NCBI GenBank assembly: GCA_965223865.1
Contig: OZ245020.1
Coordinates: forward strand, 512,001-576,000
DNA length: 64,000 nucleotides
From: Nitrosarchaeum sp.
GTDB taxonomy: Archaea; Thermoproteota; Nitrososphaeria; Nitrososphaerales; Nitrosopumilaceae
Direction of reading: 5' to 3'
Every line of letters starts with the position of its first letter. Within the stretch, counting starts at the first letter, position 1. The notes beneath the pieces were generated by a model. That model had not been told where the DNA came from. It saw only the letters and a list, made by a program, of their open reading frames with translations, and did no database searches. Positions 3,424 through 13,900 of the stretch are shown here, in pieces. Made by a program: the position numbers and the translations under genes.

Positions 3424-3517
3424 ATTATTTTCATTTTACAACTCTTAATTTAAACAATTTAGATTTTGTTCGATGATTGTACCAAATCTAGTAAAGATAA
3501 TAACGTGTTACAATAAA

Positions 3518-5065: not shown

Positions 5066-5187
5066 TAGATCTTGTACTTGTTCGGATACATAAAAACCTC
5101 ACTGGCATTTTCAGGTTGAATATTCCACTTTCTTTAGTACAAGTTCTTAAAGATAACAAGAGATCGTTAGAATACGTGGAGTAAAAT

Positions 5188-6933: not shown

Positions 6934-7045
6934 GTGTTTTCTTTTTTTTAGACCATAAATAAAATTTGCATTTATTATCATTTGAAATACACACGCATGA
7001 GAATTCAATACCATCTTTAAATATGGAATTAGTTCAATTCAATCA

Positions 7046-8758
7046 TTGTACCAGTATACAATACTTTTTGCTCTATTGGCAATTAGCGTTCCATTTTTAG
7101 TAACAGATGCGTTTGGTCATGGACTAGGTGGTGATCAAGCTGAACCCTTATCCTTTGGTGACATGGAAGTTACAGTTAGAACAGAACTTTCACCATCTGA
7201 TATTACAGTAGGCGATATTGATGACATCAACATGAGTGTACGTTTCTTTGATACCATAACTGATGAAACTTTGGATAAGGTAACTTATAGAATCGAAGTA
7301 TGGCAAAGTGGTGAACTCTTAGCTAGAAATTTGTTTTATGACTTAGACGGTAAACTAGATGTTAAGATTAATCCAAAAACGGGCTGTGCTGAAGGTGAAT
7401 TATGGAAATGCACGGTATATGGAGGTTCTGAACATGTAACTGCACCAGGAGCATTATATGTCCATGGTGAAGCATGTGATGATACTAATTTAGATACTTG
7501 TGCTAGACCAACAATTACTGGTCCTTTGTTTGTGAAAGGGGGACTGTATAACATTAGAGTCGATATTGAAGGAGCCACTAGTCCAAAAACTGTTCTAGCT
7601 ACACTACTAAGCTATGATACTTTTGTTTCAGTTGCACAAGAACAAAACTTTATGTTTCAAACTGCAAATGCTGAAGAAATACCAGTAATTATTAAAACAT
7701 ACTATGATGATGTTGATAATTTTAAATTTGATGAATCAGACAACTCAATTTCATTTGATATGCCATTTGATTGGAGTCCAGATTATGTAGACTTGGTACA
7801 AGTAGTACATGAAGAAGTAAGAGTTCCAAAAACATTTATGCCATATGCAGAAGGAAAACAATTCAAAGGATATGTTAACGGTGTAGAAATCGATCAGAGG
7901 GCCTTACTTAACGATCCCTATTCATATGATGATACCAATATTGTTCATTTCCTAATTACAAACACTGAACTGCAAAAAATTAACGAAACGCTGGGACCAG
8001 ATAATTATGATAACCCAAAAATGGATTTGAAATTAGTTCCACTTGATGAAGTATCAAAAAGTTCAACTGAATTTTATCTAGTTGATACTACAAACTACGA
8101 GCAGGTCCCAACTACAGTGAATGTTTCTTGGGATGGAAGTTATGGTGCAGGAGATAATGTTCCGTTTGAAATAACATTCTTTGATGAAAACAGAGAATTG
8201 ATACGTGACATAAAATACGCAGTTTCATTTATTGATGAAAATAATCAGGAATTAGAAAGATTCACAGGAGATGATCCTCAAAATCCTGGTATTACTGCTA
8301 TAGAAGGAATTGATTATCAAAAAATCTTCATCCCTTCACAGGGTCAATACCGAATTGATATTCTAGTTTATGGAACAGGATTTGACTATGATCCAACCTA
8401 TGCTGGAATTGGTTCAGGAATTATTGAGATTGGACCTAGCCTTCCAAAAACTACACCATCTACACCTGAAGTACAACCACCTGCTGCAATTCCTGAATGG
8501 ATTAAGAACAACGCAGGCTGGTGGGCAAATGGCGACATTGATGATAACTCCTTTGTTCAAGGAATACAATTCTTGATCAAAGAAGGAATAATGAAGATTC
8601 CTCCAACGACACAAGGCGAAGGTGCTGGATCTAATGAAATTCCTGAATGGATTAAGAACAACGCAGGCTGGTGGGCAAATGGCGACATTGATGATAACTC
8701 CTTTGTTCAAGGAATACAATTCTTGATCAAAGAAGGAATAATGAAGATCCAGTCATAG
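7046..8758 (+). CDS. secreted His1 protein with two thaumarchaeal [13 protein letters not shown]-terminal repeats
   Basis: DAFG|HGLGGD; TYYDD..FDMPFDW..VVHEEV core shared with 12335-13900. Confidence 0.85.
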
Positions 8759-8789: not shown

Positions 8790-8996
8790 ATGAAAGACAT
8801 CAATGACATCATGCCCAAAATTCCAAACATGAGATGGGGAGCTTTGATGAACAAAGCTCCAACTAGTAAAAAAGTTGAAGAAATGAATAAAATTTTTCCT
8901 AGCAATGGAAAATGGCATACTATCTTTGAGGAAAAAGAATCAGTTACAATTGATGGAAAGCAAATTTGGAAAAAAGATCCAAACAAATGGACCTAA
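8790..8996 (+). CDS. small hypothetical protein
   Basis: 68-aa ORF with ATG, protein-like composition, abuts neighbours. Confidence 0.7.
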   Translation: MKDINDIMPKIPNMRWGALMNKAPTSKKVEEMNKIFPSNGKWHTIFEEKESVTIDGKQIWKKDPNKWT

Positions 8997-9436
8997 TCTC
9001 TGAATTTATCAAATTTTACTTTGCATTCTCTATTTAGATCTTTTACTATCATAAAATAAGTGAAAACAAGTATTGCAATTGAAATTACTCTGAGAGGAAT
9101 CTCAAAATTTGTAAGAAATGAAGTAGCAACACCTCCAGCAGCCCCAAAAATAGAGATTAAGGCAATACCTATTCCACCACAACAAGCTCCAGCACCTGCA
9201 CCAATTATAGAACCTAAAAGTCCAGTACGGAGTTTCTTGGTACTAGCTTGGAGGAATCTAATTCGATAACTTGACATGCTAATTACTAGACCAGTTAAAG
9301 CACAAATTACCACAATTGACAAAAAATTAAGAATTTCATATTCTGCAACATAAAACAGGAGATATGGTTCAAAGAATAGATATTCAGTTACATAAATTAG
9401 TGGTAAAAACAAGCTAGCAAAAAAAACCACAAACAA
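8993..9436 (-). CDS. membrane protein with GACCGG motif (5' end uncertain)
   Basis: 3-4 TM helices, vicinal Cys in a TM segment; frame stays open ~20 codons upstream of the TTG. Confidence 0.75.
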   Translation of the reverse strand: MFVVFFASLFLPLIYVTEYLFFEPYLLFYVAEYEILNFLSIVVICALTGLVISMSSYRIRFLQASTKKLRTGLLGSIIGAGAGACCGGIGIALISIFGAAGGVATSFLTNFEIPLRVISIAILVFTYFMIVKDLNRECKVKFDKFRD

Positions 9437-9503
9437 AGCCAGATATCTAAAATTTGAAAATACTATCTTTAGAGCTAACTCATGTTTTTCAAAAAAAGTA
9501 AAT

Positions 9504-10424
9504 TCAACTCATCTCCCTAATTACAGCTTCAAAAATCATGGGAGGTTGTGAACCCACAATTTTTTCACTTTGCCCATCTGGTCCTACAACAAAAAATGTG
9601 GGTGTTCCAACAACACCATGAGCTAATGCTACCTTTTTGTTATAATCAACTCTTAATGCTTGTTGATTCCAAAAAATACATTTATCAAATTCATCAGCAT
9701 CCAAACTCAACCCATTTGCATATCCTACAAGTGCATCTAAACTAGCCCATCCATTTTGAACACCTGCATATTTTTTATTTAACACATCAAGATATTCAAA
9801 ATAACTTCCTTGTTCTTGAGCACAATAGGTTGCCTCAGCAGCAGATATCGAATCTTCACCTAACATAGGATAATCAATAACAAAGAATTTTGCAATACCT
9901 GAATTTATCAAATTCTCATCAAGTATTTTTTTTTCATGCAATAACCACTTTACACATTTCTCACATTGATGATCACTGAACATAATAATTGTAAACAAGG
10001 CATCTGTTTTTCCTTCAAATGGACCTGCATTACTTAAATCAAAACCTCCAATCATCAAATCTTCATTTGAAACCTCATTACTAGCTCCCACAGAAACAAT
10101 TCCTACTGAGATTAAATGTTGGATTCCATTAAGAAAATCTGCATCACCAATAGAGCCTTCAGCCCACCAGCCTGCAGTATTTTTTATCCAGGAGGGTATT
10201 TCATCTGATTTTTTATTTACTACAGAATCACTATCAACATGAATAATCTCTTCATTAACTAAAAATTCAATTCCTTTTACAAAATCTGCATCACCAATAG
10301 AGCCTTCAGCCCACCAGCCTGCAGTATTTTTTATCCAAGATGGAACATCTTGTGCAAAAACACTTGTTGTTACTGGAAAAACTATCAAAAAACTTAGAAT
10401 AATAAAATACTTCATAAATTTCAT
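9504..10424 (-). CDS. secreted DsbA/thioredoxin-fold protein with two PSWIKNTAGWW repeats
   Basis: FSDHQCEKC (CxxC), GVVGTPTFF cis-Pro motif, signal peptide. Confidence 0.88.
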   Translation of the reverse strand: MKFMKYFIILSFLIVFPVTTSVFAQDVPSWIKNTAGWWAEGSIGDADFVKGIEFLVNEEIIHVDSDSVVNKKSDEIPSWIKNTAGWWAEGSIGDADFLNGIQHLISVGIVSVGASNEVSNEDLMIGGFDLSNAGPFEGKTDALFTIIMFSDHQCEKCVKWLLHEKKILDENLINSGIAKFFVIDYPMLGEDSISAAEATYCAQEQGSYFEYLDVLNKKYAGVQNGWASLDALVGYANGLSLDADEFDKCIFWNQQALRVDYNKKVALAHGVVGTPTFFVVGPDGQSEKIVGSQPPMIFEAVIREMS

Positions 10425-10552
10425 GCTGCTCTTAGTACTAAAAATACAAATCATAATTTCCATAAATGAAAATTATTCGATAAACATACTATACAATCAA
10501 ATCTGAAAATAATATTTGCACCTTTTATAGGAAAAAATTAGCTTATTATGCA

Positions 10553-12249
10553 ATGAAATTAACAGCCCTAGCGGTACTATTTGCAGTAACAATTCTACTA
10601 ACCGGTACAATATTTACATCTGTTTCAACACAATATACTGAAGCTGTCAAAGGTCAAGGAGTTTCTAGTTCACAATATGGTTCCCAAACAAAAGGAACGG
10701 TATGTGGTGATAGACTTTGTTCAGAAATCCCTGGTGGAAGAGAAGCATGGGAGAGACAACAAATCACTCCTTCTGCTGTAATTCCAAAATATGGTATGGA
10801 ACAGAAAGGATTGCCTTTATCTCCTGAAACAGTTCATGAGAAAAGATCTCAAGGAATTACTTGTCAATGCGGTCCAGACGGATGTAATTGTCCTGGTTGT
10901 ACATGCAGTCAAGATGGAATCTGTACTTGTCATGGTGATGCTCATCAATGTTCTTGTGGTGGACATGATGGAAAACATGGAGCCTGTGCTTCATGTGGTA
11001 TGTCAGGCCATGGTTATCATGGAATGAGTGGTCATGAGATGAAATCAGTTACTGGAACAATTCAATCAGAAACTGATCCAGGTATGGGACATAAAGAACA
11101 TCAACTTGCAGTATTATTGCCACCATCAAATAAAATGTACAAAGGTATTCTGACTTACTCGGCATCTACAGATGTTCAGCTTGTTGCACTTCACGGACCA
11201 TTAGATAAAGATGAGGTTATGGACCAAACTATCTGGACTCCAGATAATGAGAAGACAAATTATGCCTTAACAGTAGTTAATCCAGAAAGTAATATGGGTA
11301 CCTGGGTTTTTGCTGGCAATGCATTAGCAGTTCATTCATTTGAGAAGGAACCATTTGATGTCACTTATTCGCTTTATTATGCAAAAATTGCTGACGGTCA
11401 TGCTATGTATGGAACTTGTCAATGTGCAAAGGATGCTCTTGTGATCAAGACGGATCTTGCATCTGCTCAGGTGAAGTTGGACCATGTATGTGCGGACCAA
11501 ACTGCACTTGTGGAGATTCTATGAAACATGGTTCTCATGGAATGAAATGCAATTGTAGTGAAGACGGAACATGTTCTTGTGGTGCAGGATGCACTTGCTC
11601 TAGTGAGCACTGTTCATGCAGTGAAACTGGAGAGTGTACTTGTGGTGCAGGATGTGACTGTGCTGGACCATCAGGTCATGGTGATATGAAACATGGTGAA
11701 ACTTGTACATCTTGTGGAAGTTATCATGATGCTCATAAAATGAGTGATCATGCAATGAAAGCCTATTCTGGAACAATCCAATCGGAAGATTATTCAAATC
11801 TTGAACAAGAACAATACCAACTTACTGTATTATTACCTCCAAGCTCAGATATACATGCTGGAGTAGTAACTTACTCGGCATCTACAGATGTTCAGGTTGT
11901 TGTACTCCACGGACCGTTAACTAAAGGTGAAGTTAAAGGACAAAATATCTGGACACCAGATGATAAGACAAATTATGCATCAACCGTTAACCCCGCAAAT
12001 AAAATGGGAAGCTGGATGTTTGCTGGCAATGCATTAGCAGTTAAAGCATCTGGTTCTGATCCATTTGATATCACTTATTCCATTGTAACAATGGGAGGTG
12101 GTCAATCAATGCCAGTTCATGAGAAAAGATCTCATGGTGTAACATGCGATTGTGCAGAAGAATGCTCTTGTGATCAAGACGGATCTTGCATCTGTTCAGG
12201 TGAAGTTGGACCATGTATGTGCGGACCAAATTGTAACTGTGGCGAATAA
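10553..12249 (+). pseudogene. secreted Cys/His-rich metallothionein-like multidomain protein split by a 1-nt frameshift near 11428-11430 (ORFs 10553-11524 and 11416-12249)
   Basis: TGT GCA AAG GAT GCT versus the paralogous 3' copy TGT GCA GAA GAA TGC TCT; one extra base joins both ORFs into 565 aa. Confidence 0.8.
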
Positions 12250-12334
12250 TCCACTTTCTTTTTATTTTTAGGATTACAATTTCAGAATCAATTAATCTAG
12301 ATTTTTAAATAGAAAACAAAGGAACAAGAACTAC

Positions 12335-13900
12335 TTGAAGAAAATATTCTATGTTGTAATTACTCTTTTTGTATTGTCCATTATGATATCATCAACCATT
12401 TCTTCTTCATTTGGTCATGGTGTTGGAAGTGAAACATTTCCTCCAGTTGATTTAGATGGTAAACTTGTAACACTAGAAGTTTCTTCGTCTACTAATAATC
12501 CTGAAGAGAGTAGTGACCAACAAATTTCTATCTCTATGATTGATTTTGATTCTAAAATTACATTAAGAGATGTTACTTTTTTGATTAAGTCAGAACGTGG
12601 AGAACAATTTCTGTTTGAAAAAGAATTTCAGGCTGATAATGGTTTTTTAGTCTTTAATTTTGTCTCAGAAGACACTGAAAAAATTCTGATTGAAGAAGAA
12701 AGTGGAGGTGATTTTTTTGGATCTTTATTGGGTCTTGAAAGTAGAAAAATAAATGTAATAGGACCAAGCCTTAGTGAAGGAGGACTTTACACCTTTGATG
12801 TTAGTATTCTTACTGCAGATGGCTATTCAAAAAAACTAGATAAACCCCTAGTGTTTAATGCCGGAATTTCAATTGCTCAAACAACCAAACACGAAATAAA
12901 TGATCCAAATTTTGGCAGTCAAACAATTGATGTAATAACATACTATGACGAAATCAATGATTTTAGTTACAATCCTAATTTAAAAGAAATAAAATTTTCT
13001 ATGCCATTTGAATGGAGTGAAACAAATGTTAATCAAACATCAGTGGTTCACGAAGAATTAGTAATACCAAAAACATTTGGAGATTTACTTGTTTCAGGAT
13101 TTTCAATGTACGTCAATGACATCAAATTATCTGATGATATTGTAACAATTGATGATTTTTTCTCTGAAGGTAGAGTTGTTCATTTTATTGTCAATCAAAA
13201 AGAATTATGGAATATTCTTGAAGAATACGAAAATCAAAATGGAATGAATTTTGTTATAAAGCCTAGTTCAGAGAAAATTCAGCTAAGCTCTGTAACAGAT
13301 AACGGACAATTTCGTTTACTTGTTTCATGGGAACCAGAAATTCTTAAATCAGATTCTCAAGCAAAAATTATTTTTGATATTACAGATATTTTCTTAAAGA
13401 ATAGACCTGTTGCTGTTAATTATGATTTTTCCATAACTCAAAATGAAAGAATTATCCATACACAAAGTGGTTTTAGTACAGATTCTAGAGATGAGCATAA
13501 TATAGCTAAATTTTTCATTCCTGAAGATGTTTCCGGTATTATTCATTTGAATTTCCAAAATTTAGATGATAACAATTTAGCAAAAACATCAATTCCTGTT
13601 GTAGTTGACCCTATTACAAATACAAAAAACACAATTGCAATTCCAGAATGGATTCGTAACAATGCTGCATGGTGGTCAGAAGAACAAATAGATGATAAAA
13701 CCTTCATTCAGGGAATAGAATATCTTATCAAAAATGATATAATTGTAATTCCAAAAACTGCTCAATCTGAGTCTGACACTAAAGAAATTCCTTCATGGAT
13801 TCGTAACAACGCAGGCTGGTGGGCTGAACAACAAATAGATGATGAAACCTTTGTCCAAGGTTTACAATACTTAATACAAAAAGGAATACTTCTTGTTTGA
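12335..13900 (+). CDS. secreted His1 protein, paralog of 7046-8758, with two IPxWIRNNAxWW repeats
   Basis: SSFG|HGVGSE; TYYDE..FSMPFEW..VVHEEL. Confidence 0.85.
   Translation: MKKIFYVVITLFVLSIMISSTISSSFGHGVGSETFPPVDLDGKLVTLEVSSSTNNPEESSDQQISISMIDFDSKITLRDVTFLIKSERGEQFLFEKEFQADNGFLVFNFVSEDTEKILIEEESGGDFFGSLLGLESRKINVIGPSLSEGGLYTFDVSILTADGYSKKLDKPLVFNAGISIAQTTKHEINDPNFGSQTIDVITYYDEINDFSYNPNLKEIKFSMPFEWSETNVNQTSVVHEELVIPKTFGDLLVSGFSMYVNDIKLSDDIVTIDDFFSEGRVVHFIVNQKELWNILEEYENQNGMNFVIKPSSEKIQLSSVTDNGQFRLLVSWEPEILKSDSQAKIIFDITDIFLKNRPVAVNYDFSITQNERIIHTQSGFSTDSRDEHNIAKFFIPEDVSGIIHLNFQNLDDNNLAKTSIPVVVDPITNTKNTIAIPEWIRNNAAWWSEEQIDDKTFIQGIEYLIKNDIIVIPKTAQSESDTKEIPSWIRNNAGWWAEQQIDDETFVQGLQYLIQKGILLV

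Follow-up and report, generated by a model that had tools for sequence, protein, structure and literature searches.

The window analysed here (the whole stretch of 64,000 nucleotides, whose position numbers are used throughout) belongs to a 2.01-Mb genome, rated 99.98% complete, of an ammonia-oxidising archaeon of the family Nitrosopumilaceae. A gene for a cysteine-rich protein lies on its plus strand, at the edge of a cluster that encodes a CopC/CopD fusion, a PEFG-CTERM cupredoxin, a CFI-box protein and a DsbA-like thioredoxin. The neighbourhood is copper-related, which supports part of the interpretation that a first-pass annotation of this DNA had given.

The gene is divided between two reading frames. 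ORF1 (10553-11524, plus strand, 323 aa) encodes a signal peptide, a CGDRLC motif, a first cluster of 12 cysteines and an intact domain, called domain A here; it ends with CQC and then an out-of-frame tail of about 30 aa. The exact ORF1 sequence was found on one contig in the protein collection. ORF2 lies in the -1 frame relative to ORF1, overlaps it and stops at 12249. Counted from its ATG, this downstream frame (11521-12249, plus strand) has 242 codons, 24 of them for Cys, and no signal peptide; it has been gene-called as P0143. The ATG overlaps the stop codon of ORF1 (ATGA), with GGAG 5 nt upstream, and to judge from the sequence the 242-aa frame may possibly be translated. The first-pass annotation had joined the two ORFs into one protein of 565 aa with 48 Cys. 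Read-through of 10553-12249, with X at codon 293, indeed gives these values, together with 25 His, 21 Met and 21 CxC, and the cysteines are laid out as that annotation described: two in CGDRLC, followed by blocks of 12, 24 and 10.

All parts of the protein are encoded on the plus strand. The putative Sec-type signal peptide (10553-10645) is the sole hydrophobic segment, has no twin Arg and ends with T-E-A, the presumed cleavage site; hydropathy and sequence thus favour the proposed secretion. The CGDRLC motif (10703-10720) is common to six ORFs of this genome with signal-like N-termini, most of them Cys-poor, and probably forms a structural disulfide. In these six ORFs, which encode unrelated secreted proteins, the signal peptide and KxxG...YGS...VCGDRLCSE make up a common N-terminal module, possibly a sorting or docking tag. 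Cys cluster 1 (10862-10996) contains 10 + 2 Cys. Domain A (11039-11389), about 115 aa without Cys, is a predicted jelly-roll beta-sandwich with a His triad (H180, H183, H261) and Asp/Glu residues. Cys cluster 2 (11417-11715) contains 10 + 12 + 2 Cys, and its 12-Cys block is CxC-x5-CxC-x3-CxC repeated twice. In domain A' (11761-12096) the His triad is lost: the motifs GH..H, LHGP and ALAVH are all present in domain A, as previously listed, and the first and the last of them are missing from A'. Cys cluster 3 (12145-12240) contains 10 Cys and is, as had been noticed, a near-copy in DNA of the first module of cluster 2 (75 of 81 bases identical). The first-pass annotation did not recognise this architecture, and our searches agree with it: neither ORF is covered by a Pfam or NCBIfam family, nor is the intact ortholog, the best result being one sub-threshold zinc-finger match.

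The single-nucleotide deletion

The change of frame is due to a 1-nt deletion at 11428-11429 (plus strand), seen in independent contigs. A missing G is evident against two references, namely the syntenic intact ortholog in genome G004 and the gene's own cluster 3. G004 belongs to the same genus, and its ortholog (602 aa, 58 Cys) is the closest relative. Within about 17 kb shared with G004, the deletion is the only uncompensated frame-changing gap well within an aligned gene body; the other frame-changing gaps compensate each other or fall in uncertain 5' extensions.

Sequencing data near 11428-11430 were examined in the contigs of four runs (X1, X2, X6 and X7) out of the 24 listed, and three of the four carry the break in exact contigs. 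These gap-free contigs span 11428 in X1, X2 and X6 at depths of 16, 257.5 and 22.9, with 34 bases to the right of the break, and come from three studies, though X1 is possibly the source sample itself, a single campaign may lie behind the studies, and rare variants are lost from contigs. For X7, no exact piece across the break is among those listed. An assembly error is rejected on account of the bridging contigs and is, in our opinion, extremely improbable. Contigs of X6 and X7 that have G at 11428 join 12042 back to 11354, and therefore represent the C-terminal cluster of another haplotype that was placed on the repeat; they are no intact allele. X1, X2 and X6 also contain a second haplotype, marked by G004-like substitutions (window 10400-12400), so the broken allele and a relative co-occur. 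Cover along the gene, taken from contig depth, is uneven, and X6 has no cover of 11472-11940. A shorter haplotype might account for both observations, though contig depth is unable to show this.

Thus the first-pass wording, a giant protein hidden by a frameshift, is right about the frameshift and wrong about the hiding: the deletion is a real allele, and therefore the giant protein is probably not produced in this strain. Intact homologs, a search for which that annotation had suggested, are present. Six full-length two-domain genomic orthologs are open (G004, G079, G380, G384, G415 and G424; 493-655 aa), a 362-aa metagenome copy is open as well, and four further copies examined run off contig ends. 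We consider it quite probable that truncation or decay explains the break; comparison of the sequences points most likely to recent decay that leaves a secreted stub of 323 aa. In favour of decay, dN/dS against G004 is the same before and after the break (0.24), the six orthologs are intact and the core of the promoter box described below is mutated. The product would likely retain the signal peptide, the 12-Cys cluster and the intact domain A, and natural one-domain forms of 362-380 aa (P0014, P0017, P0019) resemble it.

Alternatively, programmed -1 slippage at GCA-AAG could restore the frame, or the gene could be functionally split into a secreted half and a cytosolic 24-Cys half, the latter produced by reinitiation at ATGA. 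The allele occurs in three runs with no corrected variant at the break, and the 3' half is free of stops and has the same dN/dS against G004 as the 5' half (0.24 on both sides). A slippery heptamer is absent (there is only A-AAG), as is a downstream stimulator (fold z -0.39), and the break occurs in no relative; the relatives examined read through in one frame. The core of the promoter box described below is mutated too. The ATGA overlap and its GGAG speak for a split, and ATGA-type overlaps couple translation in archaea according to a passage of PMC6728339. However, of 537 possible deletion sites in the G004 gene, which is intact, 268 have ATGA as the first stop in the shifted frame, 66 of them together with an SD-like word; chance alone would thus produce the overlap, and it is not evidence of design. 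We consider both versions unlikely: programmed frameshifting lacks heptamer, stimulator and conservation alike, and ATGA reinitiation as a designed feature is rejected as a chance expectation in this gene.

Several observations accompany these results. A hairpin over ATGA had z -2.56 in one of three folds tried. P0282, a strain variant, was called from the same internal Met on a contig of 1337 bp, the end of which may cut it. The fraction of words present in RNA runs was only 0.08-0.13. Elsewhere, the database proteins P0008, P0016, P0127-P0129 and P0141 have tails that appear to be out of frame, and a CGDVLC-type secreted paralog in this genome (G000:C1:1502956-1504254, L131 5957-7255), 76% identical to an intact copy of 443 aa, has an in-frame TAG after codon 140.

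The cysteine-rich family and the His-triad domain

The Cys-rich proteins form a real family that has no name and is patchily distributed. Homologs in Nitrosopumilaceae do exist: the Cys-rich form occurs in 12 of the 401 genomes searched. A search of 5.8 billion proteins gave 229 matches among 8000 candidates scored. Among the best 120 of these matches, the top 19 are Cys-rich (32-72 Cys), and those of them that are named are hypothetical Nitrosopumilus proteins; the lower-ranked listed matches that were inspected are Cys-poor tandem-A proteins. We found no account of the family or of its gene cassette in the literature searched, which was mostly open-access.

Family members range from about 135 aa (a signal peptide and one 10-Cys module) to 655 aa, with up to 72 Cys. 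In the mini forms (G175, which is a complete genome, and P0121-P0125), only the signal peptide, CGDRLC and either one 10-Cys module or two are present. Across the family, duplication and shuffling have affected modules of 10, 12 and 2 Cys, and the number of modules varies freely. The same CxC module stands at the C-terminus of P0133, a secreted Met/His-rich protein of 210 aa, which points to module shuffling. The spacing of cysteines across the family is almost exclusively CxC (448 CxC vs 1 CC), and the linkers between clusters are rich in His and Met. The total of cysteines is even in every protein, and nearly all modules are even. The pattern CxC-x5-CxC-x3-CxC occurs 41 times in 17 of the 21 family proteins, including two occurrences in the window. 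AlphaFold gave no confident apo fold for the Cys clusters (mostly pLDDT < 50, with a shallow alignment of 20).

The first-pass annotation called the protein metallothionein-like. The clusters themselves have the Cys-rich CxC composition with few aromatics that is typical of metallothioneins: 26.5% Cys, 18.9% Gly, 0.4% Tyr and about zero Phe and Trp. The name is appropriate for this spacing, which resembles that of Cu-thioneins, but not for the protein as defined by metallothionein standards. Metallothioneins are small and Cys-only, with neither a folded domain nor an export signal, whereas the protein and its ortholog have 565-602 aa, a signal peptide, two jelly rolls and, over the whole protein, 8.5% Cys. 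The mini forms of about 135 aa are nearer to metallothionein size but keep the signal. With E up to 1, Pfam gave no metallothionein family for the intact ortholog, for five Cys-rich homologs or for the 242-aa half, and NCBIfam gave no metallothionein match either. Elsewhere in the genome, a 47-aa ORF without a signal (G000:C1:1854952-1855095, minus strand; 9 Cys, 4 CxC) is a candidate small cytosolic metallothionein.

Domain A is common by itself, being present in 37 of 61 genomes. It is a nameless mobile His-triad domain (L014, L015, L017, L019, L044, L020; P0145, P0149, P0186) that also forms tandem pairs, and elsewhere there are fusions with cupredoxin, with Kazal and DUF7482, and with further secreted domains. 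Among 377 domains the three His are 95-97% conserved, the Asp 95% and two Glu 90% and 85%. In a structural model of a tandem homolog, domain A is predicted to be all-beta (pLDDT about 98), and the order of strands suggests that the three His meet at one end of the sandwich. Domain A' has lost exactly these three residues, as would be expected if they form one site; the loss is found in the window and in G004, and the triad is kept in the other family members examined.

Comparison of the model with known structures gave Z scores of 6.7-8.3, including Ena1 (Z 8.3, rmsd 2.6, 89 residues aligned), Ena2A (8.2), PirA and GOLD, where Z of about 8 is the level of a common arrangement and Ena1 is tied with unrelated jelly rolls. 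Domain A thus appears to have a jelly-roll fold in common with GOLD domains and with Ena1 and Ena2, the subunits of Bacillus endospore appendages. It differs from them in its sequence (7-15% identity), in having the His triad and in lacking Cys. In fibres of the Ena1 type, cysteines of the jelly roll accept links between subunits; domain A has no Cys for such links. Foldseek found weak double jelly rolls only, e.g., PHM (TM 0.26-0.30). A PDB sequence search with domain A gave nothing useful, and the best score of an Atlas search, 0.82, is a lead only.

The redox cassette and its promoter

The Cys-rich gene stands head-to-head with a gene on the minus strand (9504-10463) for a divergent DsbA-like thioredoxin that has a signal peptide, Trp-rich repeats, a CEKC active site and a GTP cis-Pro loop. 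The protein matches Thioredoxin_4 with E 1e-16, and its residues C28, C31, T148 and P149 are invariant. The next gene (8993-9505, minus strand, start codon uncertain) encodes a membrane protein of four helices that contains GACCGG and in which the C-terminal Cys is invariant. The same order, Cys-rich gene, DsbA-like gene (CEKC, CERC or CGKC) and membrane gene, is found in 11 of the 12 genomes with the Cys-rich form, which represent four genera, and on the metagenome contig L042; related genomes are not independent observations. The loci are those of the window, G004, G079, G094, G127, G175, G221, G380 (where the membrane gene sits on the next contig), G384, G415, G424 and L042. G006, the twelfth genome with a Cys-rich protein, has one copy cut at a contig end and a syntenic cassette that is decayed in all three genes: at about 5900-6500 of L145 (G006:C85) the catalytic part of DsbA is gone and the membrane gene and a mini Cys gene contain stops. 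At 12 loci of Cys-poor homologs, some of them on short contigs, the membrane gene was never found (0 of 12) and there was one distant DsbA-like match. The mini form keeps the cassette, so the likely client of the enzyme is the Cys module and not domain A.

The membrane gene family as a whole is present in 360 of the 401 genomes, often adjoining a DsbA-like gene; the core pair is near-universal in Nitrosopumilaceae. A paralog with at least 72% identity to the cassette copy occurs in only 12 genomes; 11 of them carry the Cys-rich protein, and the G209 copy lies at a contig end. The genome studied has four copies (in the window and at G000:C1:733729, C1:1689648 and C3:7735), the motif being GACSCG in core copies and GACCGG in the cassette copy. 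According to structure prediction, the DsbA-like domain and the membrane protein are likely to bind each other. The predicted complex scored 0.69 vs 0.01 for the best of three controls, the mark being passed by 116 of 157 solved pairs and by 2 of 215 mismatched ones and only roughly valid with custom alignments. At least 89% of the contacts agree between runs, with a partner pLDDT of at least 65. The predicted interface is formed by the active-site helix and an outer loop, and the CC pair is absent from the contacts listed.

No match to DsbB, VKOR or Csp/DUF326 was found in this genome, which has one DsbD_TM. Among 33 members of the membrane family there was no Pfam or NCBIfam match to DsbB, VKOR or DsbD/ScsB and no named family; a PDB sequence search with the membrane protein yielded nothing useful, nor did a plasmid search with the mini protein and the membrane protein yield a match. 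Compared with six MerT sequences, the membrane protein gave an HHalign probability of 58 and E 1e-4, a score that 1 of 60 local shuffles of the MerT profiles also reached. The intramembrane CC, the next helix and the C-terminal Cys are in register in this alignment. MerTP_fusion matched 2 of the 33 members at E 0.1, and Pfam MerT none (0 of 33). The membrane protein differs from MerT by two additional N-terminal helices and by pairing with a DsbA-like protein instead of MerP, and we treat this sequence likeness as a lead only.

The spacer between the divergent genes contains a TATA box, TTTTATA (10523-10529, plus strand), about 27 nt before the start of ORF1 and conserved in all 12 aligned spacers. 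Upstream of it lies a degenerate TTC-N7-YGTACYA box (10476-10491, plus strand) with the core ATAC; GTAC is intact in G004. Base 10486 of the box was also looked at in the run contigs, and in this strain the mutation of the core goes in step with the broken gene. Genes induced by copper limitation in N. viennensis have TTCSGSMTTTGWACYANT in common, as a passage of PMC7785015 states. In the window, boxes that resemble it lie ahead of copC/D, of the cupredoxin gene and of the pair of CFI and 570-aa genes; in the spacers of this copper cluster, TTC/TTA-N7-TGTACYA boxes are located at 3469-3484, 5135-5150 and 7038-7053. The pattern has 83 matches genome-wide, 38 of them outside long ORFs. The full box was found in 3 of 12 cassette spacers vs about 1% per shuffled spacer, with a pattern that was set post hoc. 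A GTAC core at -69 to -73 occurs in 7 of the 12 cassette spacers, and 4 of the 11 spacers of relatives are without the core. The published motif exceeds background in one spacer only (15 of 18 positions), equalled by 8 of 1359 upstream regions. Around the copies of Nitrosopumilus and of G079, the 4-20 kb analysed show no linkage to copC/D.

Possible functions and known systems

Energy metabolism of ammonia-oxidising archaea depends on copper, and to our knowledge little has been established about how marine and estuarine species capture and hold it. The relevant passage of one survey (PMC9723733) gives only CopC/CopD as found in marine ammonia-oxidising archaea. We lean, with moderate confidence, towards the intact protein being an extracytoplasmic Cu(I)-thiolate buffer that is serviced by the DsbA-like enzyme and its membrane partner. 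The protein would be exported by Sec and would remain soluble between the membrane and the S-layer. Its 10- and 12-Cys CxC modules are expected to fold round Cu(I) as thiolate clusters and so to buffer or store copper for the copper-dependent ammonia oxidiser. By analogy with fungal Cu-thioneins, the capacity would be about 0.7 Cu per Cys, i.e., about 30 Cu for 46 Cys, and would vary with the number of modules. Domain A would add a three-His site that could capture copper or pass it on; the mini forms lack it, so it appears dispensable. The DsbA-like enzyme, docked on its membrane partner, may keep or return the thiols in the reduced state, may free copper by oxidation, or both, and the membrane protein may relay electrons or carry metal. 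The cassette, absent from the first-pass annotation, is the best clue to mechanism, and it also feeds the alternative reading of the cysteines as disulfides.

According to that alternative, the modules are disulfide-bonded beta-hairpin ladders (CxC-turn-CxC) made by the DsbA-like oxidase, and they rigidly space or cross-link a surface scaffold on which the His domains are displayed; the membrane protein would be a new re-oxidising partner. A substitute re-oxidant would be needed, since no DsbB or VKOR was found in the genome. Even Cys totals and almost uniformly even modules agree with disulfides and count against a copper store, but evenness follows trivially from CxC units. The xDG turns between CxC pairs suit hairpins, and a dedicated DsbA-like neighbour is a classic sign of oxidative folding. 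Moreover, disulfide-bonded Kazal domains occupy the same slot in sibling proteins, hence the compartment makes disulfides. The best fold match of domain A is a disulfide-linked appendage subunit, Ena1, but at a Z score common to this arrangement, and domain A has no Cys for cross-links. In the mini forms there is nothing to space, and the His/Met-rich linkers and the copper-type box are left unexplained. The copper store has further points against it: the fungal unit's seventh Cys is missing throughout, the box pattern is post hoc with its core lacking in some relatives, and the copC/D linkage is not universal. Gene linkage fits the copper and the disulfide readings alike. What tips the balance to copper is the spacing, together with the His/Met linkers, the mini forms and the promoter box, and we regard the scaffold, although it is the main rival, as rather unlikely.

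Two other explanations seem less probable still. The protein could sacrifice its thiols to oxidants or to soft metals other than copper (Zn, Cd, Hg, Ag) and be recycled by the DsbA-like enzyme, the membrane protein being a MerT-like carrier. A patchy family, lost or decayed in two Nitrosarchaeum genomes, suits niche defence, and the MerT alignment is in line with such a carrier; but a shuffled profile scored as high, Pfam MerT matched no member, the spacing is almost only CxC and the promoter box points to a copper regulon, which makes this explanation improbable. It is also conceivable, though we give it very little credence, that the tandem His-triad jelly rolls constitute a copper enzyme or an electron-transfer unit, loosely like peptidylglycine monooxygenase, for which the Cys clusters are a private reservoir of copper or electrons. 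The high conservation of the His and of the Asp/Glu residues over 377 domains, the cupredoxin fusions and the weak PHM matches are consistent with such an enzyme. Against it, the Foldseek matches are generic double jelly rolls, mini forms without domain A keep the cassette, and the triad of A' is lost in this lineage.

The copper store, which we prefer, also has a stronger version that we put forward tentatively, as possible rather than probable. In it the three genes are a copper-regulated cassette, the secreted protein is an expandable Cu(I)-thiolate store with up to about 70 Cys per chain, the DsbA-like enzyme, docked on a member of a new family of Cys-bearing membrane proteins, loads and unloads it, and the core pair is an undescribed extracytoplasmic thiol relay or copper gate. 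If the copper reading is true, a secreted metallothionein-like store with its own redox servicing would be a new solution and would extend metallothionein-type chemistry to the exterior of the archaeal cell. With only about 135 aa, the mini form lends itself to simple tests. Should the cysteines prove to form disulfides instead, the missing partner of DsbB/VKOR type could still be supplied by the DsbA-like/membrane pair. The frameshift by itself is ordinary.

Known systems resemble parts of this arrangement. In Salmonella (ScsB/ScsC-CueP) and Corynebacterium (DsbA-CueP), as is proposed here, an extracytoplasmic thioredoxin-fold enzyme and a membrane partner service a Cys-containing copper protein. 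A passage of PMC10907172 reports that ScsB/ScsC hand Cu+ to CueP, and one of PMC4546943 that a monomeric DsbA reduces CueP; release of Zn from metallothionein by DsbA is mentioned in PMC7113584, in a passage citing earlier work. The archaeal pair differs in that its four-helix partner belongs to no named family and is not DsbD/ScsB, and its client has tens of Cys. In its proposed role the protein is analogous to Csp1 of Methylosinus trichosporium OB3b, which is exported and stores Cu(I) on its Cys residues for a copper membrane monooxygenase; Csp has also been noted in N. viennensis. Csp1 is a four-helix bundle tetramer exported by Tat (according to a passage of PMC7558416), whereas the family described here has a Sec-type signal and beta folds, without a helical bundle or DUF326: PF03860/DUF326 had no match in the protein or the genome.

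The closest likeness of the modules is to fungal Cu-thioneins (the Neurospora unit, Cryptococcus CnMT1/2), which have the same tandem Cys boxes with spacers and grow by module duplication. A passage of PMC4755600 shows the first six Cys of the Neurospora/Cryptococcus unit in the pattern CXC-X5-CXC-X3-CXC, which is that of the family; there, a 7-Cys box holds Cu5, and Cu4 is assumed for a 6-Cys box. Tremella TmMT is likewise a modular fungal Cu-thionein (257 aa, 57 Cys). Unlike the fungal unit, the 10- and 12-Cys modules have no seventh Cys, and the full pattern CXC-X5-CXC-X3-CXC-X2-C has no match in the 21 family proteins. No homology to fungal Cu-thioneins was detectable, so the likeness may be convergent. 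The family further departs from them in being archaeal, in its signal peptide, interleaved folded His domains and Dsb cassette, and in having up to 72 Cys. [quoted passage not shown]
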